Source: a virus
Reading direction: 5' to 3' (one strand)
Virus record (IMG/VR): IMGVR_UViG_3300043409_001033
Location: 10,193-74,192 of that record
DNA: 64,000 nucleotides
Shown here: positions 5,170 through 54,101 of the stretch, in pieces
Numbering within the stretch: the stretch's first letter is position 1
How the letters are laid out: each line of letters starts with the position of its first letter
Position numbers and translations under genes: made by a program
Notes under the pieces: generated by a model
What the model was told of the DNA's origin: nothing
Seen by the model: the letters and a program-made list of their open reading frames with translations, nothing else
Databases searched by the model: none

Positions 5170-6873
5170 TTAAGCAAGCACAGCACCAGTTTCTCTAAGA
5201 ACAAGATTGAACACAATTTTTTCAATTGCTTTAATTGGAATCAATTCAATTTTGATTTGAATTTCTCCTCTATCTATTGTCTCAGGTGAATCATCAATTG
5301 TAGTTGAATAAGCACTAATACCGTAGTCTTTGATTAGTTTTTCTAAATAAGCATTAATATCATTTTTAAGTGAAATTATTGTTTTTCCAGATGCTTGTTC
5401 TTCAATATACTTATTACCAATTACTGTTAAATTAAACTTAGCTTCAATTAACATTAATCTTACATTGTTTTTATCTAATACAGTTTGTTTTTTCTGTAAA
5501 GTATTTTGACCTAAAACAACGTAATCATAAGCAGGATGTTTTGAAATAAAGTTTACGTTTCCTTTATTTAAGGCATCTTTTTGTTTTTCCGAAAGTTTTA
5601 CTTGAGAAGTAACAACAGACGATAAACTACCGTTATTATAACCAGCAGGAGCATAAAATGGTTGTTTGTATTTTTTAATATAAGCATAAACGCCAGCAAC
5701 AACCGTAGATGGAGTTACCCATACGTTTTTATTTAATCCTGTTGAGGGAATTTGTACGTGGTTGTAATATAATGTTCCATAATTACTATCATACAGGCTT
5801 GCAACAGAAATTGCATCAGTATCTTTTCTACCATAAGAAACAGCATCACCTACTAATAAAGCATCTCCTCTACCTTCTACCATACCTAATGCTTTAGTGA
5901 ATATCGCAGGATGAGTTTCAGCACTTATACCAGATAAGAATAACAAATTAAATTGGAAATCATCTTTATTTGATAATAAGTCAATTGCAGTGTCATAAGC
6001 AGTTGTTGTTGAATCATATCCTTGTGAGTTACTACCAGAAATATTTTCAAAAAATGCTTGTGGATGAGTAATCTTTCCATCCGAACCACCAGAGAAACTA
6101 CCAGATGAATTAGCAGGTAACGAACCACTTAATAAAGGATTCACGTTTCCAGCATTATCAAAATAATTTGGTGTTTTTTGTAAAACAGAAGAAATTCTAA
6201 TAAATTTAGATTTATTTGGATAAGAACCAGATTTATTAAGAATTTTGTTTACAGAATCATACACATAAACACTATCTCCAATTTTATTTGAAATATAATC
6301 AGTAGAGGTTGGGTCTAATGATAAATTATCAAATTGTTCTAATACAATCGGTTTTTTAGCATTATCATCTCCTCTACGAACAAGCAACGAGAACGTTCCT
6401 CTCGAAGTATCAGAATTAGCAACTTCCCATCTAATATTATCAACTGTTCCAAGTGTCAGAGAACCAGAACTATTAGCAATCTCAGAACCAGAATTATTCA
6501 AAATAGAACCATCGTTCAATGTTTCGATAATGAATGAAGCAGAAGTATTTGGAGAAGTAACAGTTGAAGTAGCAGGAGAATAAGAACCAGATTTGATAGG
6601 AACAACCAATAAAGTATCTCCACCATTGTTGAAATATTCTTTAGCTAATAATGAACCTTGATATTCATAATAATCAGAACCAGATTTAAAGGTTGTTCCA
6701 AAAAAATCAGCAAATTGTTGATATGAAGTTACAGAAGTAGGAACAAATGCTTTACCTTTAACCGTAGGTGTTACAACGCAAGCACCGATTGTAATATTAC
6801 CAGATGAATATGCAGTTAAATCGGTTTCGGTGAAATATACGCCAGACGCTTTATTTATATATGATACAGACAT
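5170..6873 (-). CDS. gp18: Contractile tail sheath protein (T4 gp18-like)
   Basis: SGVYFTETD N-terminus, PFYAPAG, GQNTLQ...LDKNNVRL, PIKAIEKI C-terminal sheath motifs. Confidence 0.92.
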   Translation of the reverse strand: MSVSYINKASGVYFTETDLTAYSSGNITIGACVVTPTVKGKAFVPTSVTSYQQFADFFGTTFKSGSDYYEYQGSLLAKEYFNNGGDTLLVVPIKSGSYSPATSTVTSPNTSASFIIETLNDGSILNNSGSEIANSSGSLTLGTVDNIRWEVANSDTSRGTFSLLVRRGDDNAKKPIVLEQFDNLSLDPTSTDYISNKIGDSVYVYDSVNKILNKSGSYPNKSKFIRISSVLQKTPNYFDNAGNVNPLLSGSLPANSSGSFSGGSDGKITHPQAFFENISGSNSQGYDSTTTAYDTAIDLLSNKDDFQFNLLFLSGISAETHPAIFTKALGMVEGRGDALLVGDAVSYGRKDTDAISVASLYDSNYGTLYYNHVQIPSTGLNKNVWVTPSTVVAGVYAYIKKYKQPFYAPAGYNNGSLSSVVTSQVKLSEKQKDALNKGNVNFISKHPAYDYVVLGQNTLQKKQTVLDKNNVRLMLIEAKFNLTVIGNKYIEEQASGKTIISLKNDINAYLEKLIKDYGISAYSTTIDDSPETIDRGEIQIKIELIPIKAIEKIVFNLVLRETGAVLA

Positions 6874-7016
6874 TTATGTATTTTTTAATTATATATATGA
6901 GAAAAACAAGAAAAATTCAAACTTTCTTTAAAAGTTTATAAAGATTCTTTATTTAATTATATTTTCTCTATATAAATTATAAAAACTACCTAAAATTATG
7001 AGTAAAATAAGTTGTA

Positions 7017-7814
7017 TCATAAAGGAACTACTGTTTCGGTAATCTTAATTGAAGTTGGTGTATATTTTTTTCCTACTTGATTTATTTCTCTAATTTGAAC
7101 AGATGGAACTATATGTCCATGAATTGTTAATGAAAAATCAGTTTTGATTAATCTTTCATTTTCAACTGAAATATCAGAAGAATCTGAAAATGATTCTATA
7201 TTTGTTTTGAATGAAAAACTATTTGGTTTACCCCAATATGAATTAGAAGAATATAATAATGATTCAACTATTTTGTTCATGTTTTCAACAAAATTAGTCA
7301 ATATAATTCCATTATAAGTAATGGTTAAATAATCAGGAACCGTTACGGTATAAGTTTCTATTTGTGGTTTTCTAAACTTAGAAAATCTATCATAAATATT
7401 CTTCTCAGAATAGGCTCTATTGAACGTAAATTGACTAAGTGGAACATTACCATCAACCTTATTAATAAAGTCTCTATTAGGCGTTATTGAGTCTCTATTA
7501 AGGACAATTATTGGAACTAATATTTTATCATTTTTATCACGATAATAACCATCGGTTTGAATAGCTTTCCAAACCTCTTGATTACCTATAATTATAGGAA
7601 CTTTAATAATAGTTCCATTTTGAACTATTTGAGGTTTTATTATATTATTTATATAATATAGGATTGCATCATCATGGGTAATTAAATCTACATTTAATCT
7701 TTCAAGAGTAGAATCGTCTTTAGTAGATATATCATTTGCTCTATCCGAGTATTTATCTACTTGTGAGATAGTGTCTTGTTGAACCGATATATTTTGTAAT
7801 AACTTCTTTGCCAT
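7017..7814 (-). CDS. Tail terminator / sheath stabiliser (T4 gp15-like)
   Basis: KVPIIIG..E.W...Q.DG.YRD...KI.VPII motif; position between neck and sheath. Confidence 0.7.
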   Translation of the reverse strand: MAKKLLQNISVQQDTISQVDKYSDRANDISTKDDSTLERLNVDLITHDDAILYYINNIIKPQIVQNGTIIKVPIIIGNQEVWKAIQTDGYYRDKNDKILVPIIVLNRDSITPNRDFINKVDGNVPLSQFTFNRAYSEKNIYDRFSKFRKPQIETYTVTVPDYLTITYNGIILTNFVENMNKIVESLLYSSNSYWGKPNSFSFKTNIESFSDSSDISVENERLIKTDFSLTIHGHIVPSVQIREINQVGKKYTPTSIKITETVVPL

Positions 7815-7819
7815 TTTAA

Positions 7820-8314
7820 TTAGATTCTTGAAGATGTAATATTTAATTTCTCAGGAGAAATATATACAAAAGTTGTACTTACCGAAATACTTTCTCCATA
7901 ATTTGATAAATATTCATCTCCATAATTATAAACAGGATTTTTTCCTGCTATATATTGATTTTCATTAGACATTTTTAATTCATAATAATCATCGTTCCAA
8001 ACAATAACATCTCCTAATTCGGGAAATATATCTTTTTCTTTTAGATGGTCTTTTAAAAAATCAATTTGAAGAGTACGTGCCGTGTCGGGCATTGATGAAT
8101 TAATAGTATTTTGAAATTCTCCATGGTTAATAACACAATAAACTAAAACAGGTGGATACCAAGATTTATTTAAAGATTCTCCATAAATATTAGTTGGGGA
8201 TTCTTCAACAATTAATTTATAATAACCAACTTGTTGTTCCATGATATTTTCTATCACTTCTTTGTTGATATGTTTAAATAAATTTATATCTCTACTTGAA
8301 CCAAATAATGCCAT
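7820..8314 (-). CDS. Neck/head-closure protein (T4 gp14-like)
   Basis: TNIYGES...FPELGDVIVWNDDYYE motif; follows the gp13-like gene. Confidence 0.7.
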   Translation of the reverse strand: MALFGSSRDINLFKHINKEVIENIMEQQVGYYKLIVEESPTNIYGESLNKSWYPPVLVYCVINHGEFQNTINSSMPDTARTLQIDFLKDHLKEKDIFPELGDVIVWNDDYYELKMSNENQYIAGKNPVYNYGDEYLSNYGESISVSTTFVYISPEKLNITSSRI

Positions 8315-8655: not shown

Positions 8656-8659
8656 TATT

Positions 8660-9862
8660 TTATTTAATATAAAATGGTAATGGAATATTTGCTAAAGTTT
8701 GAGATACCGACGATGCTTCTGCTTGTTGTCTTTCCAATTGATTTTTTCTTGAGGTTGCTTCTAACATTTCACGTAATTGTTGAAGTAAATCATCTCTTCT
8801 TTTATTGGCTTCGGTTATTAAATCTTGACTATTTAATTGTAATGTTTGCCCATCTTTTACATAAGGAATACCATTGGTAAATTTACCACGAATCATTGCA
8901 AGCATTTTCATCGAATACGCACAAGTCATATTAAATATCCAATCTTTACCTGTTGAGTTTATTGAAGAATAGGTGATATTTCCAATAGGAATATTTGAAA
9001 TATTTGATACAAATGGATTGGTTTGAGTTGGTGGAGTTGAACCACTTTGATTATAAACATAATCATAATTTGCATCTCGTTCACTTGTTTTAATATATTC
9101 AAACCAATATTTACCCGATACTAATGGAATAGGCTGAATGGTTAAAACATTATTTCTTAATTCAAATGTATAAGAACTTCTTCTAATTTCATCGTTAAAT
9201 TCAATAGCTTGGATTCTCATTGCATCATAGTTCATAGGCATTAATAAATAATTAACACCTACGTAAGAATCTCCGTAACCAAACCCATCTAAGAAGTTAG
9301 CAGTAGCAAGACCACCTGCCATAGTTGGGTCTAAAAATCTTGTAACAGCAGGACTTCTTTGATAAAATAATCTTTTGATTTCTATGGAGTCATCGGGATT
9401 TAAACTACCCGAAGCAATAGCCCATTGCTTTAAATCGTATGTTTGTTGTCCTGCTACAACGTCAATATGACCTTTGTGATAAGTAACATTCCCACCCGAA
9501 CCTGCTTCTGAACCGTAAGTTTTAGCTATTCTGATTATATTTCCTAAAGATGGGGTTATTTTAACATTATTAATGTCAAATGAAGAATCATTAGGTATAG
9601 GACTATTTTCAAAATTTATATAATTATCTCTTATCTTGAAGTTATTTACTTCACGAGAATATTCAAGAGTAGCTTGTTCAAAGGCATTATAAAAATGAAT
9701 GTCTTGTAGTTCAACATCCATTATAGGGTATCCTAATTGAAATGCACAATATCTTGCTACTTTATCGGCATCACTTGCAAATTGAGGGTCATTATCGTAA
9801 ATACCTCTTGCAGTCTTACCTGCCGAAAAAGTTGAGCTACCTGACCAAACAATTATTTCCAT
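8660..9862 (-). CDS. Neck/head-tail adaptor protein (T4 gp13-like)
   Basis: LGYPIMDVELQD...IRGKF...IP....LQLNSQDLITEA motifs characteristic of gp13-like adaptors. Confidence 0.8.
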   Translation of the reverse strand: MEIIVWSGSSTFSAGKTARGIYDNDPQFASDADKVARYCAFQLGYPIMDVELQDIHFYNAFEQATLEYSREVNNFKIRDNYINFENSPIPNDSSFDINNVKITPSLGNIIRIAKTYGSEAGSGGNVTYHKGHIDVVAGQQTYDLKQWAIASGSLNPDDSIEIKRLFYQRSPAVTRFLDPTMAGGLATANFLDGFGYGDSYVGVNYLLMPMNYDAMRIQAIEFNDEIRRSSYTFELRNNVLTIQPIPLVSGKYWFEYIKTSERDANYDYVYNQSGSTPPTQTNPFVSNISNIPIGNITYSSINSTGKDWIFNMTCAYSMKMLAMIRGKFTNGIPYVKDGQTLQLNSQDLITEANKRRDDLLQQLREMLEATSRKNQLERQQAEASSVSQTLANIPLPFYIK

Positions 9863-9875
9863 ACTTACTTTTATT

Positions 9876-14028: not shown

Positions 14029-15624
14029 TTACACCGTATGAAGTCCGCCAACAATTACATCTCCAAAAAATGAGTTTCTAAGGGCAGTTTTAGCATATCG
14101 GGTCAACATGAACTTATTAGGGGTAGCTGTATTATAATTATAAATCAAAGGTGTAACTTCGAGAGGAATATAAGGACATAAAGCGGCTCCTGCTTCTAAG
14201 AAGTTTGCACCTTTAAAGCCCATTAACAAGCGGTTCTCAGTATAATAAGGGTTTTTGAACACTTTATATTGAGAGTTGAATGAACCTACACGTGTATTAC
14301 CTAAACCAGACGTAGCTTTACCTACTTCGGCATCAGACATATAACCAGCCATCGACTCTAACACGTTAGCAACTTTTGGCGATACAACAATGAAGTTAGC
14401 TTCACCTCTTACAGTTTTTTGCAAGATAGAGTTAGACACTTTATTGATTTTTGTACCCAAAGTTCTAAACCAATCTTGTTGAGAGTTATAATAACCAGAA
14501 GTCATTGGTGTGAACGCAGTGCCAGTAGAGTTGATTTGGATGTTGTTTTCAGCAGTCCAATAATCACGAGTACCACCAGCAGGCACAGCACTTGAAATCA
14601 TATCTAATACTTCTAAGTCGATTTCTCTTGCGATACTATCAGACATCATACCAGTAATTTCAGATTCCAAGTCGATACCTTGATACGCCTTAACGTCCTG
14701 TATCATTTCTTGTGTCCATTGCCCTTTTAATTTACGAGTTTTAGCAGAAACTTGTTTTGAAGTCCATTCAGCATAGAACTCAGGAATGTTCAATGAACCA
14801 GTTCTATCTTCAAAGTCACCACGAGCATTATCAACAGTTTGTTTTTGGTAATAAACCAAAGCAGTACCATTTACAACGTTTGCACTTGAACCAGATACCA
14901 CGAAGATAACGTTAGTACCAGTTCCATCGGTAACAGTATACTGTTGATAAACGTTAGCTGGAACAACACCAGAACCAGACAAAGTGAAACCTCTTACAGC
15001 CAACACATCATAAGATGGTAAAGATGAAGTTGGTACAGATACTAATTTGATTTCGTTACGAGCAACAGAACCAGATAAAGATGAATCAAACCAAACATCT
15101 TTAAATGAACCAGATGTTACAGTTGTTGATGCAGAAGCAGAGTTTGGTGCAAGTGAATACGTGAAACGACCAGAACCATACAAACCACCAGAAACATCAG
15201 CACCAGTATCAGTGATACCATATACAGAATCTCCGCTTGTAAATGGTGATTTAGAGTTTGCATATTTGAAATCCAAATAGAACACTAAACCAGTTGGCAT
15301 TTGCAATGGTTGAATAGAAACAAACTCTTTTGCAGAAATCAAGTCAGCAAATACCTTACGTACTAAAGGTAAGATAACACCAGCAACTTGTTCACCAGTT
15401 CCACCCGGATAAGTAGCACCACCTAAGTTAGTTTGGTTAGTTGTTTCTTTTAAAATGTGACCTAATTGGTTATGTAAAAGGTTTGCCATTTGAACTTTTT
15501 CAATTGGATTCAAGCCTTCCAATAAACCAATTTTCTCATACATTCCTACTTTCTCAGTAGATTTTTGATATTGTTCGTTGATTGCTTTTCTTTGATAATC
15601 AGCGAATTGTTGGAAATTTGACAT
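14029..15624 (-). CDS. gp23: Major capsid protein (T4 gp23-like)
   Basis: LPLVRKVF..ISAKEFVSIQPLQMPTGLVFYLDF, AKTRKLKGQWTQEMIQD, EIDLEVLD, PYIPL..TP..Y...TP motifs. Confidence 0.95.
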   Translation of the reverse strand: MSNFQQFADYQRKAINEQYQKSTEKVGMYEKIGLLEGLNPIEKVQMANLLHNQLGHILKETTNQTNLGGATYPGGTGEQVAGVILPLVRKVFADLISAKEFVSIQPLQMPTGLVFYLDFKYANSKSPFTSGDSVYGITDTGADVSGGLYGSGRFTYSLAPNSASASTTVTSGSFKDVWFDSSLSGSVARNEIKLVSVPTSSLPSYDVLAVRGFTLSGSGVVPANVYQQYTVTDGTGTNVIFVVSGSSANVVNGTALVYYQKQTVDNARGDFEDRTGSLNIPEFYAEWTSKQVSAKTRKLKGQWTQEMIQDVKAYQGIDLESEITGMMSDSIAREIDLEVLDMISSAVPAGGTRDYWTAENNIQINSTGTAFTPMTSGYYNSQQDWFRTLGTKINKVSNSILQKTVRGEANFIVVSPKVANVLESMAGYMSDAEVGKATSGLGNTRVGSFNSQYKVFKNPYYTENRLLMGFKGANFLEAGAALCPYIPLEVTPLIYNYNTATPNKFMLTRYAKTALRNSFFGDVIVGGLHTV

Positions 15625-16750: not shown

Positions 16751-17377
16751 CTATCGACCCAAAATTTGATTTAAAATATGATTTAACTTACTATATTGCT
16801 CTTCAACTTGATAAGAAACAATATTTTCTTGCACAACTTCGGGACTACCACTTCCCAAAATAGAACCATGATTAGAATTTCTTGTAACTAAATCATAAGC
16901 TATAATATCTAATGATTCAACAATAATATCATCTCCTCTTTGAGAAGTATTTCCCAAACTTCTTGAAGAAACCCCTACTTTATCTCCTAATTTTAAAAAC
17001 TTAGCAACTCTTTGACCTTGTGGAATTTCGGGAAAATCATAAATAGCAATATTTCCATATAATTTATTACCTTTCCACCAAGTATCAACTATTTTATGAG
17101 AAACGGTTTCATATTTTACTTCGGCATCATCATAATGGTCTAATGAACCATATAATTCATTAGAGTTTTTTAATCCCATGTATCTTTCAATAGATTCTTT
17201 CAAAACAGAATAAGGATAAATCCTTCCATTTCCGTTTCTTTCATCAGCAGTTGATAATAAAGTAGGAATTATTAATAATCCATTATCAGATTGTTTATAT
17301 GACTCGGTTAATTGTTGTTTTGACAATTGTAAATAACCTAAACTTTCCGTTAATAATTGTTTATTTTGATTTTGCAT
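16751..17377 (-). CDS. gp21: Prohead maturation protease (T4 gp21-like)
   Basis: N.NGRIYP, YGSLDH, VSHKI, VGVSSRSLG, YDLV motifs. Confidence 0.9.
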   Translation of the reverse strand: MQNQNKQLLTESLGYLQLSKQQLTESYKQSDNGLLIIPTLLSTADERNGNGRIYPYSVLKESIERYMGLKNSNELYGSLDHYDDAEVKYETVSHKIVDTWWKGNKLYGNIAIYDFPEIPQGQRVAKFLKLGDKVGVSSRSLGNTSQRGDDIIVESLDIIAYDLVTRNSNHGSILGSGSPEVVQENIVSYQVEEQYSKLNHILNQILGR

Positions 17378-20091: not shown

Positions 20092-20472
20092 TTATAATGT
20101 TTGTAATTTTGAGAATATATCTTTAATTTTTAATAAAATTTCATTCTTTACTTGAGGACTCATTGAAAAATCATCTTCTACATTTTCTTTTAATTTATTA
20201 ATATGAGAAAGAATGATTGAAACTTCTTTTAATTTTGATTTAAGAATGGAATAACCTTTTCTTTTTTGTTGTTTGGTAGAATTAGTTTTGATTTGTTTAT
20301 TAAAAGAAGAATACGAAATTTCATTGATAAATTTGTTTTTATTTAAAACTTGTTCAACTACTTTTTTTATCTTTTTCTTAGAAATTTTCTTACCTAAGTT
20401 TTGTTCACCGACTCCTCCTGTAAATGTTGAACCTCCAAGATTAGTAGCATTTGTTGTTAGTCCTCCATCCAT
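20092..20472 (-). CDS. Hypothetical head-associated protein
   Basis: 126 aa ORF in the head operon; FINE|ISY site. Confidence 0.55.
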   Translation of the reverse strand: MDGGLTTNATNLGGSTFTGGVGEQNLGKKISKKKIKKVVEQVLNKNKFINEISYSSFNKQIKTNSTKQQKRKGYSILKSKLKEVSIILSHINKLKENVEDDFSMSPQVKNEILLKIKDIFSKLQTL

Positions 20473-36159: not shown

Positions 36160-36457
36160 ATCTTACTTCAAAGATTGTATCGGTGGTTTTTGATAAAGGG
36201 ATTGGTTGATTTGATTTAGCAATTGCTACTAATTCTTTATTATTATTGTATAGTCCTATTGTTGAAACGTAAGGTTGAAAAGATTCTTCATTAACAAAAT
36301 CTTTTACTATTCCATCTACTGAATTAGGGTTTACTAATAAAGATTTATTTGTAGAGTATAAAAATTCTCTTTCCTTTGCTTTACAACGAACTATTGTTTC
36401 AAATACAGTATGTGAGTTTTTAAACTCAATGCTAAAATTACCAGTGTTAGTTATCAT
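36149..36457 (-). CDS. Virion/baseplate protein C-terminal module (paralog of the C-terminus of 44965..45978)
   Basis: PYVSTIGLYN..KELVAIAK..QPI...IFEVRFD vs TYVTTLGVYT..MELVGVAKLSKPL...IIKVKFS. Confidence 0.7.
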   Translation of the reverse strand: MITNTGNFSIEFKNSHTVFETIVRCKAKEREFLYSTNKSLLVNPNSVDGIVKDFVNEESFQPYVSTIGLYNNNKELVAIAKSNQPIPLSKTTDTIFEVRFDM

Positions 36458-41433: not shown

Positions 41434-42039
41434 TTATAAAATATCCCACCCAGTTCCAAAACTTTGTATTGTATATGATGATTTTGGAATACTCGTAGAT
41501 AAATAATTGTAATCATCAATTAATTGAGAACCGCTTGGAATAATATTTACAGAATTTAATGTATTATCTACTTTTTTTATTATGAAAGTTCTTCCTTGAA
41601 CTAAATTTGCATCCATTAATGAAATATTAATAGAACTTCCAGAAGCATTTACTCTAATAGTACCATCGAATTGATTTAATGAATAATTAGAAATAACGGT
41701 TTTTGGAACAGATTCTATTATACTACCAGAAATATTTATAGTAGAACCAGAATTATTTATATAAGATAAATAAACAAATGAACCAGAAAGACTTATACTA
41801 CTAATCGAATTTACAGAATCCTGTAAAATATTATATTCAACATCATCTAACACCTTAATTGGGTTAGAACCACTTCGTTTAAAGTAAAGTGAACCACTAC
41901 CAATAGCCATCAAACCATCCCTTGTTAAATAAGAGTTGGAATCATTTACTGTTAAATAATATGGAATAGCAAAATTAGAAATACTTGAATAGTTATCTCC
42001 AACTAAATCTCCATATATTTTTTGTGAACCACTTGCCAT
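41434..42039 (-). CDS. Tail fibre/appendage-associated protein, SGS-rich
   Basis: Eight SGS motifs; C-terminal DGTIRVNA...GRTFIIKKVD...VNI.P.....ID...Q..G..W.IL module typical of fibre proteins. Confidence 0.6.
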   Translation of the reverse strand: MASGSQKIYGDLVGDNYSSISNFAIPYYLTVNDSNSYLTRDGLMAIGSGSLYFKRSGSNPIKVLDDVEYNILQDSVNSISSISLSGSFVYLSYINNSGSTINISGSIIESVPKTVISNYSLNQFDGTIRVNASGSSINISLMDANLVQGRTFIIKKVDNTLNSVNIIPSGSQLIDDYNYLSTSIPKSSYTIQSFGTGWDIL

Positions 42040-42381: not shown

Positions 42382-44961
42382 TTATAAATATGATGTTACA
42401 CAATTATTACCACTTATCAACCATGTTGGTTCTTGTTGTCCATTCAAACAGGCTATTCTTACTTTAGTTGAAATTTTACAAGATTTATTAGATTTTAATC
42501 TTACCCAAACTGTATATAAACCATTTGGTAAATAGTTTGATTGATTATTTTCCGTGTAATACAAATCTACATCTCCGTTGAATGAATATTCTAAACCAGA
42601 AGAATCTTTAGTAAAAGGATTTAAAGCACTTACAATTATAATTCCTCTATTATCATTACTAACACCGCAGACAAAGTTTGTATATGGATATTCTCTAATA
42701 ATAGGATTGCAATTAAAAATAGTTGTAGTAGAAGAAATATTACTTAATGTCAAAGATAATGTTTTATTATCATCTTCATTATTATAACCATTTCCAGCAA
42801 TAGAATTAGGGTCATATTGGTCTACTTCCCATACTTGAGATTTTATTTGTTTAACATCACCGACATTACCATTAAATTTACCTTTAAATCTTATAACAAA
42901 ACTATCTCCGACAATTAATTCATCTTTACTAAACAAATAATAACCATTTTCAAAAGTATAATCATAAGAAGATATACTTGATGTATTGATAATAAAGTTA
43001 TTATCATATTCTAACTTAATAACTAAATTAGTAGCATTACTATTTCCTTTATTTTGAATAACAATTGTAAAATCTAAATCGGTATTAATTAAAGGAGTAG
43101 TTGTACTTGAATAAAATGTTAATTCTAAATCAGATATTTCAATCTCACTATTAATTGTTGTAGATGTAGAAGTACTCGATGGTAAAGTAGTAGTAAAATC
43201 GACCGATGCTAATTGATTGAATGTCAATTGACTACTTAAAGTTTTACAAAAATCCTTTGTTTGATATATTAAAGAACTATTTGTGTATGAATCATCAACA
43301 ATAACCTCTAAATAATTAGAATTTATGTCACTAACAAATTTTACACCTCCATTAAATTGCCAATTAGGAAATTCTTTTAGATAAAAATTAGTGTTAGCAA
43401 AAATTATATAATTATTTTTTGTATTGGTTGGTATTAATTCTAATTCAACTTGAGAATCTACGCAAGTTGGTTCTAAACAGTTACCATTAAATGTAATAGT
43501 CTTAGTTGTTGTTGGACAACAATCACTATAAATAGTAGCAATAACATCTCCTCTACAACCAAATAACATTATACTATCTTTATAGGTAGGAATACCGCTC
43601 ATTTCGCCTGTAAATGCCCATTGAACCGTAGAAATATTACAATGATTGGAAACTACTTTATATTCATTATATATTTGGTTTATTTGACCTAAAGCGTTTA
43701 AATCAACATAATCTTTTATTTTATTAAAAGAATATTCTCCTGTCATAGGGTTCATTTTAAAATGATACTCTACATAGGATTCATTTGTTGTTGATTTTAC
43801 CTTTAAGTTAAAATTATAAGCATTTCTTAGGTATGTATATGGATTTGATAAAGATGTATCAATGATTACTCTACTTGCTAATTCACTTATGGTAAAATAT
43901 GTTAATCCACCATCTTTTGAAAATGAAATATTATAATTTTGGTCGGTATCAAAAATGTAACTATAATTATTTATACCATTGTTTCTTGTAGAAGTTTTTA
44001 TTACATCGGTTAATGATACAAAAATGTTATTACTTGGCAATACTTCTACTTGGTTTGATTTTTTGATTATTTGAAAATCTGCTACTCTACTTAAACAATT
44101 ATTATCTGATAATGTTGGATTTGGTATAGTTAAATCAAAATCACAGTTTTCAATTACGTTTATTTCAATATCTGAAATATTAGAACATATTCCTAATGAA
44201 TCTTTTACTAAATATTGAGCAGTATATGTACCTAAAGAAGAATTTGTAAAAGTTATTGATGAATTATTATTTGTATAAGTAAACCCATCCGATAAATTTA
44301 ATAGTTGTAGTGTAGAACTATCTAAAGTTTGGGAGCAATATGTAATAGCATCAGATAATAAATCTATTATCTTTGTTTCATTTTTTAGAAATGTATATTT
44401 TTTTGGGAAAACTGTTGGTTCAACTGGAAATAAGCAGAAATAATTTTGATTAGTTACTACAACTATGCCTTGTTGATAAAAAATATTACCTACAAGGTCA
44501 TCGGAAATAGTGTCTATTAGATTTCCGTTACCATCATCTTCAATATTGAATGAATCGGAATTTAATTTAAAGAAAGTTGGTTGTATTTCATTACCAAACA
44601 TACTTTGGGGAATGTCTAATACACGAATAACACTTCCAATTTCGGTTGGAAAATCTTTAACTAAGTCTTGATTATGATTATATGAATGAAATGAGGATGA
44701 GTGAATACTCGAACCCGAATATTGTTGATAAAAAAGTCTATTTACATTATCATAAATAGACCTTTGGTAATATCCATTCGTTTTCGGTTCAGTTGGTAGA
44801 TAGAAATTTCCATCAAGCTTCTTTCCAGTATAAATTTTGACATCAGAATCACTACCACTTCCACACACATTTGGTAAGTTGTTGTAATTTAACTTATATT
44901 GTTTGTGTGCTTGATATGGTATTGTATTAACATCGTCAATATTGAGTCGTTTTAATGACAT
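42382..44961 (-). CDS. Virion protein: baseplate-type N-terminal module followed by Ig-like and DUF11-like domains
   Basis: IEDDGNGNL...VGNIFYQQGIVVVT; DLELT...FTIVIQNKGNSNATN...DQYDPNS DUF11-like; Thr/Ser linker TTTLPSSTSTSTT. Confidence 0.65.
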   Translation of the reverse strand: MSLKRLNIDDVNTIPYQAHKQYKLNYNNLPNVCGSGSDSDVKIYTGKKLDGNFYLPTEPKTNGYYQRSIYDNVNRLFYQQYSGSSIHSSSFHSYNHNQDLVKDFPTEIGSVIRVLDIPQSMFGNEIQPTFFKLNSDSFNIEDDGNGNLIDTISDDLVGNIFYQQGIVVVTNQNYFCLFPVEPTVFPKKYTFLKNETKIIDLLSDAITYCSQTLDSSTLQLLNLSDGFTYTNNNSSITFTNSSLGTYTAQYLVKDSLGICSNISDIEINVIENCDFDLTIPNPTLSDNNCLSRVADFQIIKKSNQVEVLPSNNIFVSLTDVIKTSTRNNGINNYSYIFDTDQNYNISFSKDGGLTYFTISELASRVIIDTSLSNPYTYLRNAYNFNLKVKSTTNESYVEYHFKMNPMTGEYSFNKIKDYVDLNALGQINQIYNEYKVVSNHCNISTVQWAFTGEMSGIPTYKDSIMLFGCRGDVIATIYSDCCPTTTKTITFNGNCLEPTCVDSQVELELIPTNTKNNYIIFANTNFYLKEFPNWQFNGGVKFVSDINSNYLEVIVDDSYTNSSLIYQTKDFCKTLSSQLTFNQLASVDFTTTLPSSTSTSTTINSEIEISDLELTFYSSTTTPLINTDLDFTIVIQNKGNSNATNLVIKLEYDNNFIINTSSISSYDYTFENGYYLFSKDELIVGDSFVIRFKGKFNGNVGDVKQIKSQVWEVDQYDPNSIAGNGYNNEDDNKTLSLTLSNISSTTTIFNCNPIIREYPYTNFVCGVSNDNRGIIIVSALNPFTKDSSGLEYSFNGDVDLYYTENNQSNYLPNGLYTVWVRLKSNKSCKISTKVRIACLNGQQEPTWLISGNNCVTSYL

Positions 44962-44964: not shown

Positions 44965-45978
44965 TTACCAACTAAATTTTACTTTAATTATTTTATCTTC
45001 AATAAATGTCTTTTTGAGAGGTTTAGACAACTTAGCCACCCCAACTAATTCCATTTTATCGGTATATACTCCTAATGTAGTCACATAGGTAGTAGGATTA
45101 TCTATGATACTTTGGTCAAATATGTTACCAGAACTATCTAAAATACTTGGATTAGTTGTAAAATTAAAATCAGCATTAGATAATCGACAAAAATAATACT
45201 TACTTGTAACAGTTTCTTCCGAACGAACTTGAAAATATTGACCAGCAGAAATCATATTGAATAATTTTAACTCATTTCTTTGAGTAGCGTTAGTCGGAGT
45301 AGTAGTAATATTCAATCCAATACCTTTATTTGCATAAGATAACGCTAATGCTTTTGGATTTAGTACAAATAATCCTAAATCAGGTAACACTATTCCATAA
45401 GTACCTTGAGTTGTATTGACAATAGATGAACCACTCGCTAATACGCCATTTGAACCAGAAATAATCGTATAATATCTTGTATTACCAATATAATTATTTA
45501 CAATATCAATCTTTGAATCATCTGTTAATGAAAGAATATTAGACCCAGACTTTAGTCTTAAATTAAATCCACCTTGTATTGATTCTCTATAACAATCTCT
45601 TGATAATGAAAGGACGAAAATTTCATCAGAAGAAATTCCACCAGTAGAGTTAAAATTAAATAAATCTGTTTCTGAGTTTAGAATATTTTGTCTGAATGAT
45701 GAATATGATATTTTTGTAAACTTAGTTCCGTCATAAGTTTGATAAGCAGAACCAGAAATATTACCCGAACCAGAAATATTAGCATAAGAAATGCTAAATT
45801 GTGGGGTTGCTAATGGATTTACCGAAATATTGTCTTTATACACATTTACATAAAATCCATTATCTATAACAGGAGTATAAAATGTAGATAAAATTTCAGT
45901 ATCATTTGACCAAGCAGGTTTAACTACTTTTTGAGAATCAAGTGTTGAGTCACTTGGTTGAAATTTAATATATGTCAT
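44965..45978 (-). CDS. Baseplate/virion structural protein
   Basis: YFCR....FNFTTNPS...PTTYVTTLGVY....ELVGVAKLSKPLKK; five SGS motifs. Confidence 0.7.
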   Translation of the reverse strand: MTYIKFQPSDSTLDSQKVVKPAWSNDTEILSTFYTPVIDNGFYVNVYKDNISVNPLATPQFSISYANISGSGNISGSAYQTYDGTKFTKISYSSFRQNILNSETDLFNFNSTGGISSDEIFVLSLSRDCYRESIQGGFNLRLKSGSNILSLTDDSKIDIVNNYIGNTRYYTIISGSNGVLASGSSIVNTTQGTYGIVLPDLGLFVLNPKALALSYANKGIGLNITTTPTNATQRNELKLFNMISAGQYFQVRSEETVTSKYYFCRLSNADFNFTTNPSILDSSGNIFDQSIIDNPTTYVTTLGVYTDKMELVGVAKLSKPLKKTFIEDKIIKVKFSW

Positions 45979-46662: not shown

Positions 46663-49600
46663 TTAATTTGATTTGTTAAGTGTATAATCATTTAGTAATT
46701 TTAACTTAACTTCTTTTGTAATAGTATCAATATTACTCAAAACATTTGGGTTAATGTTACTTGGAATTAAGAATCCGTATCCACTTGCTCCCGTCTTTTT
46801 CTTAAAATTGACAATTATGTTGGTTTCATCTTTAATTCGTTTTAAAATAACACATTCTTCAATGTTTTCTTTAGTCAAGTAACTCGGAATAGTATTAGAT
46901 AAAGTAATATTGATGTTAGAATTTGTAATAATAACGTTTCCTACTTCTAAGTAAAATGAATTTTTAGTTTTCGAGTCTTTAATATAGATAATATCTCCAC
47001 TTTCTATATTAAATGGTTCATTTATATCACCATACTTAGAATAAATTTTACTATTTGTAGAATTAAAAATACTATTATCTATATAGTTAATAAGTTGTCT
47101 TGTTAAAACAATAGATTTAGTATTCAACCCTTGAACAATATTATCATTATCTGCTATTTTTAAATTAGATACATTGGCAGTTGTATAAACAGATGAAGAT
47201 TTCATTAAAGTTATAGAGCCACTTGTAACATTATTTGTTTCTAATTGTTCTAATACAAATAAAACTTTATCATATTTAGATAATGTATTACTATTTTTTA
47301 TAGCAGTATAATCTTTTGTTAAAACCCCTCTATTTCCAACTGGAATATTTCCTAAAATAGTTGATAATTCAAAAACTGGTATGTTTATGTTTACTGTTTC
47401 TTGGTCTTCTTCTAAATATTCGTCGTATAGCTTTTCAACCGATTGAGTTGTAAGATTTTTTACTTCAAATAATTTACCAGTCGTATATGGTATAGTATCA
47501 TTAGAAGTATAAATTCTATATGTTCTTTGGTCAGAATTGATTCGACTAATATTATCCCATGTCCAAGTTCTATCAGGATTATATGGAGGTCTTGTTGTAC
47601 CAAGTGAGTTTTTACTATTTGACCAATAGTTATTGAAAAAAGTCATAGACTCGGTTCCGTTGATAGGTATTTCAAGATTTCGTTGGATAGTATTGTAAAT
47701 ATCTAAAGGAATCTCGTTTCCGTCTTGGTCAAATAACGGTTCTATTGGATTGTGTGTATAAATAACACTATCAATAATACTTTCATCTGAAATATAATTT
47801 TTATAAGTTGAAAGTTTATATTTGAATGAAAAACTACTTACGGTTGGTTTCAACAAAAGATTAATATCAACATTGAATTGATATTGATTTCTATTTGGAA
47901 TAGTATATGAAGAATATCTGTTATCTACCTCACTACCAACAATAAAACCACCCGTTGTATCGACATCTACTTGAGAAAAAAGGTCATAAATGAATTTTTT
48001 ATCACTAATATCTCTATCAAAAGGTTCTATGCTACGTAAATAAGTAGAATCTTCTTCACTTAATGAATCAAATTTGAAATATTTTTCAGAATTTGTAAAA
48101 TAAAATACAGGCTCAAATGAATAACCAGAAACAAATATTTCTTTTGAACCATCTAAAGATTTTTGATTAGAATATTTATTGACATCAAATAAAGAAACAA
48201 CCGCACTATCTCCTTTAACAAAATATCCTTGAATAGAATAAAAGTTCTTATTAGATTTATTCAAATCGGTCAAATTTCCATTAGAATCAACTAAATATTT
48301 TAATTGAATATTAGATTTTTTATCAAATATTTTATTTTCATACACATCAGTAAACAATCCAATTTTATCTACATAAGATTCAATTGTAGGAGTTTTGTTT
48401 AACGATATATCTCCTTGTGTATATTTATTTAATTGTTTACTTGATAATTTATTTCCTTTGTATTTTGAATTTATTATTCCTGTTTGATTTGAATAATATT
48501 TAGAATCAACTACATCGTTTGTTAAGTTATATACCGAATACTTAAATTCAGATAGTTCATTCTTTGATAATTTTGATTTTAAGAACTTATTTTTGTTGTT
48601 TGGTATAAATCCTTCACTAAACTCATAAACAGCCTTTAAATCGTCTAAATGAAGCTCAGATTGAACGTTAAACTTATTTAATATTTCGGTTTGTGTAGAA
48701 TCTATTACAAACTCTGGTCTTTGATGTTTTATTATATTCCTATGGAGTACGTTTTGTCTTATCAATATCCCAGTATTGGTTGTATGGGATACAGGAACAA
48801 AATCATAAATCATTTTAAATAACGAGTTATCAATGTATTGAATTAATTTTATATAATCTTTTACATTATAATTTCCAATAACTCTTTTTATATATGATTT
48901 TTTAATCAAGTCTAATGTAGAATATTTTGTATTGTACATACTACTTGGGTCTCCAATATAATCATCAATTGATATATGACCTAAGTTACTTATAATGTCA
49001 TCATCTTGTTCAAAAGTTGGCGAAAATACAACATCTAAGAATTTATAATCAATAAAATCAGGTTCAGATTGGTCAATTGAAGTAAAACCACTTAACAAAG
49101 TTCCATAATAATCTTTAGATTTTATTTTAATCGTATCGGTTACTCTTTTTGTAGTAGCCGTTCCAAAATTATTGTAATATATTTCATCATAATTAGTCAC
49201 ATAGTTATTTTTATTTGGAAAACCAGTAAAAGTAACATACCAACTTGAATAAGGTTTGTTATAACTAAGAGATGGAAGAGTTGTTACCGAACTATGATTA
49301 TAAGTCATTAAATCCGTTCCAAGTGGCAGATAATACAATATATTATCAATAAAACCAGTTACATTCGATGATTCTACCGATTTAGGATTATAAAATCTAC
49401 TAATAAGATATTTATCTTCCAAAACATCGTTTCTTACTTCTAAAGATTGAATATTATAATCTAATCCTTGTCCAATAACTAATGACAAAGTTTTATCTAA
49501 TATTACAGTTGGTTCATTTGTAATTTGTAAAGAACTTGTATAAACTTGAACTGTTTTAGCAGAATCTTCTTTAACAATATGAATTGTATAAATTCCTTTA

Positions 49601-51594
49601 TTATTAGTTTGGTTATATTCTCTACTTAAATAAACATAAAACCATTCTTGGTCATAAAGTTCTACTTCTACTTTTTGACTTACATTATATCCATAATTAA
49701 GATATACTTTAGACGGTTTATTATCATAATTTTCAAGATTACAAGTTATAAAATCTTGACTTGTTGTTTTTAGTTTAAATAATGTTTCAGATTGTTGAAA
49801 TACTGTTTGACCCGTAAATAAATCATTCGAGTTGAAATCACTTGGTCTAAAATCTCCTACTGAAACATTTGAACCAGATGGTTTACTATTTAGTTTAAAT
49901 CTAAATCCTACTGAACTTGGTACTAAATCATTTGAGCCAGATGTCTTAAATGGAATGGTTAAATATCCATCTCTATTAGCATCAAGAGCATAATTAAATA
50001 CATGGTCTTTTGATTCAAACGTATTTATTTCATTTGATAATGAACCATAATTGTATATTCTATAAACAGTATCGGGAATACCAAAAATATTTATTAATTG
50101 ACGTAAACCATTAATTGTCCCTTTACTTTTAAATAAGTAGGGTAAATTATGATAAAGTCTTTTGTAAATTTCTTTTGAATAGTTTTTTTGTGGTAGTTGA
50201 GTTACATCAACATTTGATAAACTATTGTATAACTTAACCCCAAATGATTTTAATACAGTCTCGACTAAATCAGGAGATATACCTTTATTCATATTGTTGT
50301 TAGCAACATAAATGTCAGTCATCTTTCTAATATAAATCCAAATATTATCAAAATGATGTCCTACTAAATTTAAAAAATGAAACAATGGAGTGTTTCTTTC
50401 ATCAATTAAGATATAATTAGGAATACTATTAACAAGAGATGATAAATTAAAATCATCATAGATTTTTGCTTCTCCTAATATACCAGAGTTATTAGAACCT
50501 TCATAATCAGCATTTCCTAACCAGTTTATTACGGTTTGTGATGAAGATGGTAAAAGTAACCCATCATTATCTTTTGGATATGCTTTTGGAGAAGTTGACG
50601 TATATAAGAAATATTCGTATTGGTCAAATTTAGTTAATACGTCACTTAATCTACTTTGATAAGTAATTATATTTCCAATATTATTATCAATGTTGTATAG
50701 ATATGTTTCTATTAGATTAACTTTATACATAAAGTTTTTAATCCTTGAAACAATATTACTAAAATGGACAAACTCACTAAAGTCTTCCCAATTTACATTT
50801 ATTGGAAGAGATTTATTGTTAGGTTTACTGAAAAATAAATTATTAAATCCTCCAAAGTTTTGTTCTAATGTATCCGTATCTAAGTAATCGGTTGAAAATG
50901 ATTTCTTATCGTCTAAATTAATATCAAAATTTGGTTGGAGTTTTTTGACAGGTTCAATTGCTTGAGTAGGTAAAACTAACTCAATATCAACAACGTTAGT
51001 CGGAATGACTTCTTGTTGAACCCAACAAAATGATTTTGTTGTTATAGAAACATCAAGTGGTTCATATAACTTTACATATATTTCGTAAACATCATCATTA
51101 GTATTTAAGGCAACGTTTACTATTAAAAATAATTTATTTGATTGAAAGTTTAATAAATCATACTTTAAATAGTTGTATTTTTCAAAATTATCTTTAAGAG
51201 TGTTATATAATGACTCTATCTCTATATTAGATAAAGTGTTTGAACTTAAAGAAATCTCTTGTCTATTAGAAGAAATTTCTTTAATAAATAGATATTCATT
51301 AGATAATTTTCTTAAAAAATTATAATGTATAGAATATTTTCCTTCAACAAATCCTCTATTAGTACAATCTAAGATAGGGTCTATCTCAAGTGATTGTAAA
51401 TTACTATTCAGTAAACCATAATTAGCATCGGGTTTATAAGAAGTGTAATTATAATCGCTTGTGACAAGAGTATTATTTGAATCGTATATGTGTATCTCAG
51501 CTACATCATTAACTAACCCAAAGACATCTAATAACTCTTTGTTATTAATTAAAGACAAATCGCTTGGATTTATTTTATTGAGATATTGTGACAT
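46663..51594 (-). CDS. Large baseplate wedge protein (gp7 / P2 gpI-like motif)
   Basis: 1643 aa; VGHHFDNIW.YI, EIYKRLYHNLPYLFKSKGT..GLR.LI..FGIP. Confidence 0.7.
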   Translation of the reverse strand: MSQYLNKINPSDLSLINNKELLDVFGLVNDVAEIHIYDSNNTLVTSDYNYTSYKPDANYGLLNSNLQSLEIDPILDCTNRGFVEGKYSIHYNFLRKLSNEYLFIKEISSNRQEISLSSNTLSNIEIESLYNTLKDNFEKYNYLKYDLLNFQSNKLFLIVNVALNTNDDVYEIYVKLYEPLDVSITTKSFCWVQQEVIPTNVVDIELVLPTQAIEPVKKLQPNFDINLDDKKSFSTDYLDTDTLEQNFGGFNNLFFSKPNNKSLPINVNWEDFSEFVHFSNIVSRIKNFMYKVNLIETYLYNIDNNIGNIITYQSRLSDVLTKFDQYEYFLYTSTSPKAYPKDNDGLLLPSSSQTVINWLGNADYEGSNNSGILGEAKIYDDFNLSSLVNSIPNYILIDERNTPLFHFLNLVGHHFDNIWIYIRKMTDIYVANNNMNKGISPDLVETVLKSFGVKLYNSLSNVDVTQLPQKNYSKEIYKRLYHNLPYLFKSKGTINGLRQLINIFGIPDTVYRIYNYGSLSNEINTFESKDHVFNYALDANRDGYLTIPFKTSGSNDLVPSSVGFRFKLNSKPSGSNVSVGDFRPSDFNSNDLFTGQTVFQQSETLFKLKTTSQDFITCNLENYDNKPSKVYLNYGYNVSQKVEVELYDQEWFYVYLSREYNQTNNKGIYTIHIVKEDSAKTVQVYTSSLQITNEPTVILDKTLSLVIGQGLDYNIQSLEVRNDVLEDKYLISRFYNPKSVESSNVTGFIDNILYYLPLGTDLMTYNHSSVTTLPSLSYNKPYSSWYVTFTGFPNKNNYVTNYDEIYYNNFGTATTKRVTDTIKIKSKDYYGTLLSGFTSIDQSEPDFIDYKFLDVVFSPTFEQDDDIISNLGHISIDDYIGDPSSMYNTKYSTLDLIKKSYIKRVIGNYNVKDYIKLIQYIDNSLFKMIYDFVPVSHTTNTGILIRQNVLHRNIIKHQRPEFVIDSTQTEILNKFNVQSELHLDDLKAVYEFSEGFIPNNKNKFLKSKLSKNELSEFKYSVYNLTNDVVDSKYYSNQTGIINSKYKGNKLSSKQLNKYTQGDISLNKTPTIESYVDKIGLFTDVYENKIFDKKSNIQLKYLVDSNGNLTDLNKSNKNFYSIQGYFVKGDSAVVSLFDVNKYSNQKSLDGSKEIFVSGYSFEPVFYFTNSEKYFKFDSLSEEDSTYLRSIEPFDRDISDKKFIYDLFSQVDVDTTGGFIVGSEVDNRYSSYTIPNRNQYQFNVDINLLLKPTVSSFSFKYKLSTYKNYISDESIIDSVIYTHNPIEPLFDQDGNEIPLDIYNTIQRNLEIPINGTESMTFFNNYWSNSKNSLGTTRPPYNPDRTWTWDNISRINSDQRTYRIYTSNDTIPYTTGKLFEVKNLTTQSVEKLYDEYLEEDQETVNINIPVFELSTILGNIPVGNRGVLTKDYTAIKNSNTLSKYDKVLFVLEQLETNNVTSGSITLMKSSSVYTTANVSNLKIADNDNIVQGLNTKSIVLTRQLINYIDNSIFNSTNSKIYSKYGDINEPFNIESGDIIYIKDSKTKNSFYLEVGNVIITNSNINITLSNTIPSYLTKENIEECVILKRIKDETNIIVNFKKKTGASGYGFLIPSNINPNVLSNIDTITKEVKLKLLNDYTLNKSN

Positions 51595-51919: not shown

Positions 51920-51939
51920 CTTTTTAATTATAAATATAT

Positions 51940-51972
51940 AAAAAAGAAAACAAGCCTAAAAGACTTGTTTCT
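51940..51972 (-). terminator. Rho-independent terminator
   Basis: AACAAGTC-TTTTA-GGCTTGTT followed by TTCTTTTTT. Confidence 0.7.
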
Positions 51973-52005
51973 AATCGTCAATCATGGATTTACAGTATCA
52001 ATCTG

Positions 52006-52329: not shown

Positions 52330-52332
52330 AAT

Positions 52333-53001: not shown

Positions 53002-53012
53002 AATAATTTCAT

Positions 53013-53044
53013 AAAATAAGGTAAATCTAAAAGACTTACCTTAT
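53013..53044 (-). terminator. Hairpin / probable terminator
   Basis: ATAAGGTAAGTC-TTTTA-GATTTACCTTAT-TTT; the U-tract is short. Confidence 0.55.
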
Positions 53045-53126
53045 ACATCAAACCTTTAAAACAATGAATAACTAATATGTTACCCGTACATAATCAATAC
53101 AAATTACTTATTAAAAAAGTTCCATT

Positions 53127-54101
53127 TTAATCATTTATTTTAAAATATAAATCATCTTTGAAAATATATTCATTTCCATTGATTATTGTTTTGATGTCTA
53201 TGGTATAAAATCTATTAGTTTGAAAATTAGTTGTATCAAACATAAAGAAGTTTCCATTGTTATCTAAACTTACTTTGGTATAATTTGTATCAAAATCTAT
53301 AACATAAAAATCTGCCTTTAAATCTCTTATAGCATAGTAAGTAGTCGAAGGTAAATATTTTTTTACATTATATTGAGATACTTTTTGGAAAGTTCTTGTT
53401 GGATATTTTTCTCTACAAGAAACATTTATTCTATATTTATGTCCTTGATATAGTTTAAATGGATTACTTGCTAATGTAACGTAAGGTTCGGTTGTTATAA
53501 CACTTCCTGATAATGAGTTTAGATAAGTTGAATCGTCATATCTTAGTTCATAGTATGGTTGATATATTGTATGGGTATCTTTGGAATAAAGATTTAGTAA
53601 ATAAGTAGAACCAGATTTAATTGTTAAATCATTTTTTATTTGTAGACTATAAGAATAGGTTGTAGAACCAGAAAGGTTGAAATTAATATCTTTGTCACTA
53701 TAAATAGTGTATGTATTTTCAGAAATTAATATTTCGGTTGATAAATATGAAGCAGAGTATTTATTCCAAGTAATTCCAGTTGTGTCATTATTACCATTTG
53801 TTAGTTTATCTATCCCATTAGACCAACTATTATTTGAAAGTTCTTTTAATTGCAAAGAATATTCAGATGGTAAAGTGTGTCCATTACAAAAATATATTTT
53901 CATATTTTCATAATAAGAACCAGTTATGTTAGCCTTTTTTAAAGCTATTGCAGAAGAATCAAATGATATTAAGGAGCGTGTTACACTATTTTCTATTTGA
54001 TTGATACCCACGTCAAGAATCTCATCTAAACCCGTGTTTTTGTCGGGTAAATATGAATATATAGATGCGTCTTTTGTGGGTAGTAATTTAATAATTGCCA
54101 T
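53127..54101 (-). CDS. Virion protein (DNRLRE-like N-terminal domain)
   Basis: P.KDASIYS....NTGLDEIL...RSLI.F...YSKDTHTIYQP..E.RYDD; R.KYP.RTF. Confidence 0.6.
   Translation of the reverse strand: MAIIKLLPTKDASIYSYLPDKNTGLDEILDVGINQIENSVTRSLISFDSSAIALKKANITGSYYENMKIYFCNGHTLPSEYSLQLKELSNNSWSNGIDKLTNGNNDTTGITWNKYSASYLSTEILISENTYTIYSDKDINFNLSGSTTYSYSLQIKNDLTIKSGSTYLLNLYSKDTHTIYQPYYELRYDDSTYLNSLSGSVITTEPYVTLASNPFKLYQGHKYRINVSCREKYPTRTFQKVSQYNVKKYLPSTTYYAIRDLKADFYVIDFDTNYTKVSLDNNGNFFMFDTTNFQTNRFYTIDIKTIINGNEYIFKDDLYFKIND

Follow-up and report, generated by a model that had tools for sequence, protein, structure and literature searches.

A Ser-Gly-Ser tripeptide enriched in the outer virion proteins of a T4-like phage lineage is a candidate surface modification sequon

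The glycosylation of mycobacteriophage virions by phage-encoded glycosyltransferases was reportedly described by Freeman et al. in Cell Host Microbe in 2023 (cited in PMC12619734 and PMC12801897). To our knowledge, phage virion glycosylation has been shown chemically only in a few mycobacteriophages, and we know of no sequence rule for the glycosylated sites there. According to PMC12619734, the capsid and tail-tube subunits of these phages carry their glycans C-terminally. We analysed a 64,000-nucleotide stretch of virus DNA (IMG/VR record IMGVR_UViG_3300043409_001033, positions 10,193 to 74,192; hereafter the window), in which the tripeptide Ser-Gly-Ser (S-G-S, or SGS) is strongly enriched in the outer proteins of a T4-type virion. 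The mycobacteriophage system is the nearest published one, and the two cases are alike in their phage-encoded soluble transferases, in having major virion subunits as proposed acceptors and in the proposed surface coat. Phage-encoded glycosyltransferases are represented here by an enzyme of the window recognised by its fold, and by a GT4 gene pair and islands of sugar genes in the clade. The mycobacteriophage acceptors are C-terminal, whereas the window holds about 40 candidate tripeptides in nine or more proteins, and all of these sites are internal.

Outside phages, Aah acting on AIDA-I and TibC acting on TibA are the nearest parallel in mechanism to the proposed sequon, since numerous serines of a beta-rich surface protein are O-glycosylated there in the cytoplasm. 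The glycosylated peptides of TibA are full of SGG(S)-type turns, for example ...FSGGSAMG...NSGGDQY...SGGSAT... (PMC3835316, Table 1), and Aah is reported to recognise a structural motif without a consensus sequence (PMC3835316). In those systems a structure is reportedly read and the substrates are secreted adhesins, whereas in the window the word is strict and the carriers are virion proteins. Three-residue sequons are used in the O-glycosylation of Bacteroidota, D-(S/T)-(A/I/L/V/M/T), and by the cytoplasmic N-glycosyltransferases of the HMW1C type, N-X-S/T. In both, a minimal three-residue word on exposed loops suffices, and the HMW1C-type enzymes are, in addition, cytoplasmic. The words differ from SGS, and the Bacteroidota system works in the periplasm on exported proteins, whereas phage virions assemble in the cytoplasm. 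We know of neither system acting on virions. Our literature search found no description of an S-G-S sequon or of an SGS excess in phage proteins.

The record has 74,192 bases and is 44% complete (CheckV), and the last base of the window is the contig end. The window has a G+C content of ~27%, and every large open reading frame (ORF) lies on the minus strand, including the genes of the nine proteins with two or more SGS and of the portal. Genes were identified for a gp23-type major capsid protein (MCP), a T4-type portal, the large terminase, a prohead protease, the tail tube and sheath, a gp13-like adaptor, gp6-like and gp25-like baseplate wedge proteins, a DnaG-type primase, a zinc-finger/methyltransferase protein, a GH19 lysozyme-like protein and a SegE-type homing endonuclease. 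The nearest deposited phages by MCP identity were Flavobacterium phage immuto (44%) and Microcystis phage Mel-JY01 (41%), followed by an uncultured 484-kb phage (38%) and Rhodothermus phage RM378 (35%). Synteny with immuto extended over the whole structural module.

Tripeptides were counted over 58 ORFs of the window, and the expectation was taken from 2000 within-protein shuffles. SGS occurred 40 times against about 8 expected (7.9-8.2; z about 11.3-11.5), and none of the 2000 shuffles reached 40. The first-pass annotation, which had been made by a model from the letters and translations, had proposed this enrichment from manual counts. Measured against shuffled proteins, the proposal held (40 vs 8.2, z 11.5), with SGS first in enrichment among all tripeptides of the window, and every per-protein count was reproduced exactly. 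Ser/Gly composition was rejected as the cause, since the shuffles (8.2) and a dipeptide (Markov) expectation (13.3) both remain far below 40.

The excess was specific to SGS. Related tripeptides were at chance (SGT 3, TGS 4, TGT 7, AGS 2, SGA 2), as were the generic patterns [ND]G[ND] (20 vs 20.5) and [ST]A[ST] (16 vs 17.5). With [ND]G[ND], SGT and TGS at chance, a generic preference for polar-Gly-polar turns is ruled out. The SG and GS dipeptides outside SGS numbered 74 and 73, below the 84 expected. Thus, the entire signal resides in the tripeptide. The serine codons of the sites are a mixture of TCN and AGY, indicating that the signal is at the protein level and ruling out a DNA-level word or repeat. 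No paralogy was detected among the SGS-rich carriers; their counts are therefore independent, and duplicated domains do not inflate them. The first-pass annotation had also drawn an analogy to the Ser-Gly acceptor of proteoglycan xylosylation, which likewise has Gly directly after the Ser. In eukaryotes, this acceptor requires acidic residues close by. The 40 site contexts in the window showed no acidic bias in their flanks, and SG outside SGS was not enriched (74 vs 84). Without acidic flanks, the analogy fails.

Thirty-eight of the 40 SGS were located in nine proteins, namely the sheath, the MCP, the neck adaptor and six others encoded in the baseplate/fibre operon. The other two, which had escaped the earlier counts, lie in 1016-3526 and in the prohead protease (16751-17377). 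The tail sheath (5170-6873, 567 aa) carries eight SGS against 0.61 expected, all within aa 64-281 (nt 6031-6684). The gp23-type MCP (14029-15624, 531 aa; Pfam Gp23, E 1e-64) has four, at aa 171, 184, 216 and 244 (nt 14887-15114), and the gp13-like neck or head-tail adaptor (8660-9862, 400 aa; PHROG 211; orthologue immuto 131708-132910) has three. In the baseplate/fibre module, a 201-aa protein (41434-42039) carries eight SGS against 0.57 expected. It has no Pfam or PHROG match and is a putative virion protein by its position in the late operon. A 337-aa protein (44965-45978) carries five; its immuto orthologue (91310-92323, 34% identity) has three, with one site in common. Three SGS each were found in a 324-aa protein (53127-54101; orthologue immuto 84135-85244) and in a giant protein of 1643 aa (46663-51594), whose immuto orthologue (85576-89373) likewise has three, at different positions. 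The remaining carriers, with two each, are an 859-aa protein with a DUF11 domain and poly-S/T runs (42382-44961) and a 650-aa mucin-like protein (39443-41395), in which five S/T runs extend to as many as 22 residues.

No SGS was found in the portal (21350-23161, 603 aa), an internal virion protein, or in the tube (4632-5117), the gp6-like wedge (54709-56478) and the gp25-like protein (56479-56868). The terminase, the primase and the other enzymes of the window also have none. The absence of SGS claimed earlier for the terminase, portal, primase, zinc-finger/methyltransferase protein and gp6-like wedge was thus confirmed for each. In immuto, too, the portal, the tube and the gp6-like and gp25-like wedge proteins are free of SGS.

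The sheath was identified by Pfam Phage_sheath_1/1C over aa 304-559 and by a match to PHROG 23. All eight of its SGS fall outside this conserved core. An AlphaFold2 (AF2) model built from 14 homologues, of moderate confidence (mean predicted local distance difference test score, pLDDT, 67.6), matched solved sheaths at Z 20-25, among them T4 gp18M (Z 20.3, 302 residues, 3.6 Å). In this model, S64 closes a hairpin strand and G65-S66 form the tip. Site 95 follows a strand, site 215 lies at a strand end, site 249 in a short helical turn and site 257 in a four-residue strand. The first-pass annotation had predicted outward-facing loops for such sites. Seven of the eight sheath sites are modelled at strand ends, the hairpin tip, the turn or loops, three of these seven in low-confidence stretches, and one is placed within a strand. 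Domains I and II of T4 gp18 point outward, and by analogy the SGS-bearing region would be the exposed part of the sheath.

The MCP segment that carries the four SGS corresponds to an insertion common to immuto, Mel-JY01 and RM378, and is gapped in T4 gp23 and in cyanophage S-CAM4. Site 216 is also SGS in immuto. The MCP ends in ...GDVIVGGLHTV, without a Ser/Thr tail. A 126-aa protein (20092-20472) contains a 45-residue stretch that is 40% identical to aa 61-103 of the MCP; the common stretch may be a shared propeptide or prohead-targeting segment. Another tripeptide, YQQ, ranks next after SGS in enrichment, with 12 occurrences in the whole window where 1.5 would be expected (z 8.7). Contexts of this type include SYQQFADFF in the sheath and NFQQFADY at the MCP N-terminus.

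The same counts were made for other phages (observed SGS/shuffle mean). Beside the window (40/7.9, z 11.3), an excess was found in the whole genome of immuto (50/19.1, z 7.7), where SGS is again the top tripeptide and SGT and TGS are enriched about twofold. It was also present in the IMG/VR loci L019 (22/3.9, z 8.7) and L020 (12/3.2, z 5.2) and in RM378 (8/2.0, z 4.3). Mel-JY01 gave 10/6.0 (z 1.8) for SGS and 38/18.3 (z 4.8) for [ST]G[ST]. No excess was detected in the IMG/VR locus L022 (1/2.2), S-CAM4 (4/3.7) or the T4 structural region (6/5.5). With T4 and S-CAM4 at chance, a property of all T4-type virions is ruled out, and the SGS excess is a lineage trait. In the outer virion proteins of this phage and its relatives, it amounts to about fivefold over chance and reaches 14-fold.

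SGS is well supported as a selected surface motif of the outward-facing virion proteins of a large aquatic T4-like clade related to immuto, placed in the outer region of the sheath, the capsid insertion, the neck and the peripheral baseplate and fibre proteins. We propose that it serves as a short acceptor sequon, in which a soluble phage enzyme would modify either serine where the Gly forms part of a turn. The modification would take place in the cytoplasm, before or during assembly, with O-glycosylation as the leading candidate, and capsid, sheath and baseplate would thereby be coated. The writer would probably not be the GT-A gene pair of the window; a GT4 (GT-B) pair at the head of a glycan island would be the better candidate. 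We hold the view that SGS is a sequon written from outside the window tentatively, at a little less than an even chance.

The first alternative is that SGS is an unmodified structural motif, a strand cap or tight turn of beta-rich outer domains that were elaborated in this clade. We consider it rather unlikely, though it has the merit that no modification has to be assumed. The modelled sheath sites at strand ends, hairpin tip and loops would suit such a motif, and in the 201-aa protein most SGS directly precede short hydrophobic, strand-like stretches. IMG/VR sheath homologues at 35-41% identity contain 2-5 SGS against 0.3-0.7 expected, and three sheath positions are SGS in 6, 9 and 11 of 14 homologues, as a structural constraint would also predict. 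Nevertheless, other turn formers ([ND]G[ND], SGT, TGS, TGT) are at chance, the same folds in T4 and S-CAM4 lack the excess, and the carriers are unrelated to one another. In addition, conserved sheath serines are encoded by TCN in some homologues and by AGY in others. Changing between these codon families without losing Ser requires more than one substitution, indicating long-term selection for serine, and both serines of the motif were kept through such switches.

The comparison of the window with immuto bears on the same question. Among orthologues of 28-46% identity, SGS also stood at the aligned position for just 3 of the 26 sites of the window and 3 of the 14 of immuto, yet the identical set of orthologues was enriched in both phages. 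The residues aligned with non-shared sites often keep the central Gly (DGS, SGA, QGS, SGN), which speaks for a structural turn. At sheath aa 136 the window has SGS and most relatives have DGS; at aa 141 the window has LGT and relatives have SGS; one relative has SGS at both equivalent positions. This pattern is one of site turnover with density maintained. Judged from these alignments, selection seems to act on how many sites there are more than on a fixed element of the fold.

If SGS is a sequon, a candidate for its writer is found in the relatives. In immuto, genes for transferases and sugar-nucleotide enzymes are grouped in an 11-kb island (genes 89-101, at 49-60 kb), in which genes 89 and 90 come first and form a GT4 (GT-B) pair. 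Orthologues of the two genes, in the same order, are present in RM378 (p013/p014; E 7e-32 and 3e-7) and in Mel-JY01 (39-54% and 45% identity). Each of the four clade contigs with a completeness of 66% or more contains a gene-89 orthologue (46-61% identity). Across the 50,697 deposited phage records, gene 89 was confined to the seven whose MCPs are closest. The domain Glycos_transf_1 was detected in immuto, RM378, Mel-JY01 and the genome G001, whose copy is not a gene-89 orthologue; it was absent from T4, S-CAM4, MA9V-3, phiFL1A and 1706. The nucleosides of immuto DNA are only dA, dC, dT and fdPreQ1 (PMC10516641). The island thus does not glycosylate DNA, and the acceptors left are proteins or the host envelope. 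The end of the window's contig is syntenic with immuto at 78 kb, and the island position lies beyond it. Because the contig stops before this position, the absence of the GT4 pair from the 74-kb record is uninformative. From these gene comparisons, the GT4 pair with its glycan island is a better candidate SGS writer than the transferase pair of the window. The first-pass annotation had allowed for enzymes encoded beyond the window as its second choice, and the pair with its island would be a concrete candidate of that kind.

A gene-89-type GT4 read through one in-frame stop (TGA or TAA), or split in two, was observed in several clade genomes (Mel-JY01 at 83.4-84.9 kb; G027:C1:96313-97689; G028:C1:70214-71599). 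In the RM378 record, a UDP-galactopyranose mutase-like gene (112985-114136; L032:15773-16924) lies inside the structural region, so that SGS-rich RM378 could make a furanose sugar donor. Bacterial autotransporter heptosyltransferases (BAHTs) are assigned to Glyco_transf_9. This family (PF01075) was absent from the 44%-complete record of the window, G001, immuto and RM378, with positive controls detected, and Mel-JY01 alone has one member. A BAHT/GT9 enzyme was therefore rejected as the SGS writer.

Several points weigh against the reading of SGS as a sequon served by the GT4 pair. Some sheath sites are conserved at 35-41% identity, often with the Gly kept, which a structural turn would explain as well. 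The sheath model is only moderately confident, and the placement of the sites rests on a monomer rather than on the assembled tail; sites 128, 136 and 279 are in loops of low confidence (pLDDT <50). The GT4 pair is not in the 74-kb record, a result that, at 44% completeness, neither supports nor refutes the link. Three small phage records rated 100% complete by CheckV (G011, G020 and G022) combine the transferase pair of the window with an SGS excess and lack the gene-89 GT4; no single transferase family thus tracks the motif everywhere. Finally, the GT4 pair accompanies SGS-rich genomes within one clade only. Since both traits belong to that clade, their link is confounded with ancestry.

A further alternative is that SGS has another surface function, such as phosphorylation or acylation by a phage or host enzyme, or the docking of a decoration protein, ion or ligand. 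The evidence for selection and surface placement applies to it equally, no transferase family follows the motif in all lineages, and many ORFs of the record have no assigned function. We consider it improbable. Among the identified genes of the 74-kb record there was none for a kinase, an acyltransferase or a decoration protein, and the literature search found no system that uses bare S-G-S in this way; we also know of none for phosphorylation, acylation or docking. The 10 kb of the record outside the window encode a 5'-3' exonuclease, coiled-coil proteins and ORFs without assigned function, and no recognisable sugar enzyme was found there.

The first-pass annotation had named two genes of the window, 36447-37397 and 37394-38227, as possible writers; they are labelled GT1 and GT2 here. 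The AF2 model of GT1 (316 aa, minus strand, phrog_4417) reached a pLDDT of 96.1, and a Foldseek search of the PDB returned 232 matches at E<=0.001. The leading matches were all glycosyltransferases, including LgtC, the catalytic domain of UGGT, glycogenin, the blood-group enzymes GTA/GTB and XXYLT1, with TM-scores of about 0.4-0.5 for the best. Judged by this modelled fold, GT1 is a GT-A transferase resembling retaining GT8/GT24/GT6 enzymes, and the earlier assignment as a glycosyltransferase is borne out. In 29 homologues down to ~31% identity, D99, D101 and H262 are invariant and H98 and S100 nearly so (motif HDSD). D99 and D101 would be the DxD ligands of metal and nucleotide sugar, with H262 as the C-terminal His. 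Neither the protein, nor its 29 homologues, nor their profile gave a Pfam or PDB sequence match. The sequence leads were Atlas HPAT (10% of the members of one cluster) and one homologue with PF02709.

GT2 (277 aa, minus strand) begins with ~75 aa resembling SUEL/rhamnose-binding lectins, with a PDB profile match to the L-rhamnose-binding lectin 5h4s (E 1e-11). The remainder is a putative GT-A domain in which EHD would replace DxD; its invariant residues are E158-H159-D160, H247, H250 and H257. No Pfam match was obtained, including in scans of individual homologues, and the lectin domain lacks the usual sequence-level Pfam match. The Atlas leads were weak (GT6 at 0.86). Comparison by hhalign of A1 with A2, and of each with an immuto GT2-family protein, gave no match. 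GT2 homologues were absent from the 50,697 deposited phage records, and at least 213 were found in IMG/VR. The fusion recalls the lectin and transferase layout of ppGalNAc-transferases, which use their lectin domain on mucin tracts.

GT1 and GT2 overlap with one another and with two genes upstream, 38218-39450 and 39443-41395, whose products contain Ser/Thr runs of up to 22 residues. The former encodes a 410-aa protein (minus strand) that overlaps its neighbours at both ends and has no SGS; the latter lies upstream of the transferase genes within one overlapping gene chain. Long S/T runs (<=22 residues) were observed in four proteins of the window (25052-27370, 38218-39450, 39443-41395 and 42382-44961), and STT, TTT and TST are enriched with z 5-7. 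The proteins with S/T runs are mostly not SGS-rich, suggesting two separate classes of candidate acceptor in this phage.

GT1 homologues were found in 77 deposited phage records, of which four were examined (L027:25260-26824; L028:9741-11355; L034:10263-11831; L033:17606-20906), each with a tail/tube or poly-T/S neighbour. In Enterococcus phage phiFL1A, Lactococcus phage 1706 and Clostridium phage phiCTP1, the homologue directly follows the major tail or tube gene. The products of these genes have poly-Thr ends (...TTTTTSTTTTTTSSTTTTTTTQASSK in phiFL1A, ...TTTTTTTTTTHHD in 1706 and ...TTTTTNAPITTTTTTV in phiCTP1). In Chryseobacterium phage MA9V-3, the first and third of three ORFs upstream of the homologue have poly-T/S tracts of 18 to 41 residues. 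TTT was enriched in all four phages (z 6-12; top tripeptide in three), whereas SGS was not (z 0.3, -0.9, 1.1 and 1.2). Conversely, searches with hidden Markov model profiles, in which positive controls worked, did not find GT1 or GT2 in the complete, SGS-rich immuto and RM378, and both genes were absent from all 20 contigs of the window's capsid clade. Of the best 80 GT2-homologue loci in IMG/VR, 53 contain a homologue of GT1 as well; the pair is thus conserved. About half of the 53 are strongly enriched in SGS (L099 with 19/2.7 and L057 with 17/2.0 among them), whereas others with 24-30 poly-S/T runs have none (L038, 3/2.4; L051, 4/2.7).

It is therefore very unlikely that SGS is the sequon of GT1 and GT2, even though the nearest solved relatives of GT1 include the protein-acting glycogenin, UGGT and XXYLT1, the pair is translationally coupled to late-operon fibre genes, and many paired loci are SGS-rich, as are G011, G020 and G022, which are estimated to be complete. 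The claim that the transferases at 36447-38227 write SGS is contradicted by these comparisons, and SGS density does not track their presence across relatives, since the two traits dissociate in both directions. The accompanying claim that SGS is a selected motif fared better, as the excess was confirmed, belongs to SGS itself, is restricted to the outer virion proteins and is selected at the protein level. Given the dissociation, and with the mucin-like tracts mostly on proteins other than the SGS carriers, the pair is most probably aimed at the poly-Thr/Ser tracts of the neighbouring fibre-like proteins. An account that joins both systems, in which the GT4-led island reads SGS as an O-glycosylation sequon and an independent GT-A/lectin-transferase system serves the mucin-like poly-Thr/Ser tracts of the fibres, is possible, though its probability is well short of even.

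The poly-Thr tails beside GT1 homologues in Firmicutes phages resemble the mycobacteriophage case far more than SGS does. The GT1 family, which has no Pfam family, lies directly downstream of poly-Thr-tailed tail or tube genes in three phages of Gram-positive hosts. This gene order suggests widespread tail-tube O-glycosylation in such phages, of which our literature search found no report. Two genes downstream of the GT1/GT2 pair, a SegE-type GIY-YIG homing endonuclease is encoded at 35692-36159. The small ORF between them (36149-36457) has a C-terminal domain of ~90 aa in common with 44965-45978 and two immuto baseplate-module proteins. Elsewhere in the window, the GH19 chitinase-like (lysozyme) protein of the baseplate module (54102-54707) contains 2% Ser, compared with ~9-13% in most of its virion neighbours. 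A 658-aa protein (30986-32962) has a 2H phosphoesterase/Acb1-like (anti-CBASS) domain at aa 205-324.

Two of the phages with the SGS excess are in culture, namely immuto (host Flavobacterium sp. LMO8) and RM378 (host Rhodothermus marinus). If SGS is a sequon, a tripeptide would allow glycosylated virion surfaces to be predicted from sequence, and an acceptor would be found for many 'orphan' glycan islands of aquatic phages. Sequon and acceptor would bear on adsorption, particle stability, grazing and immune recognition. If SGS is unmodified, it would still be an unusually strong, lineage-specific constraint on exposed turns, which itself calls for explanation.

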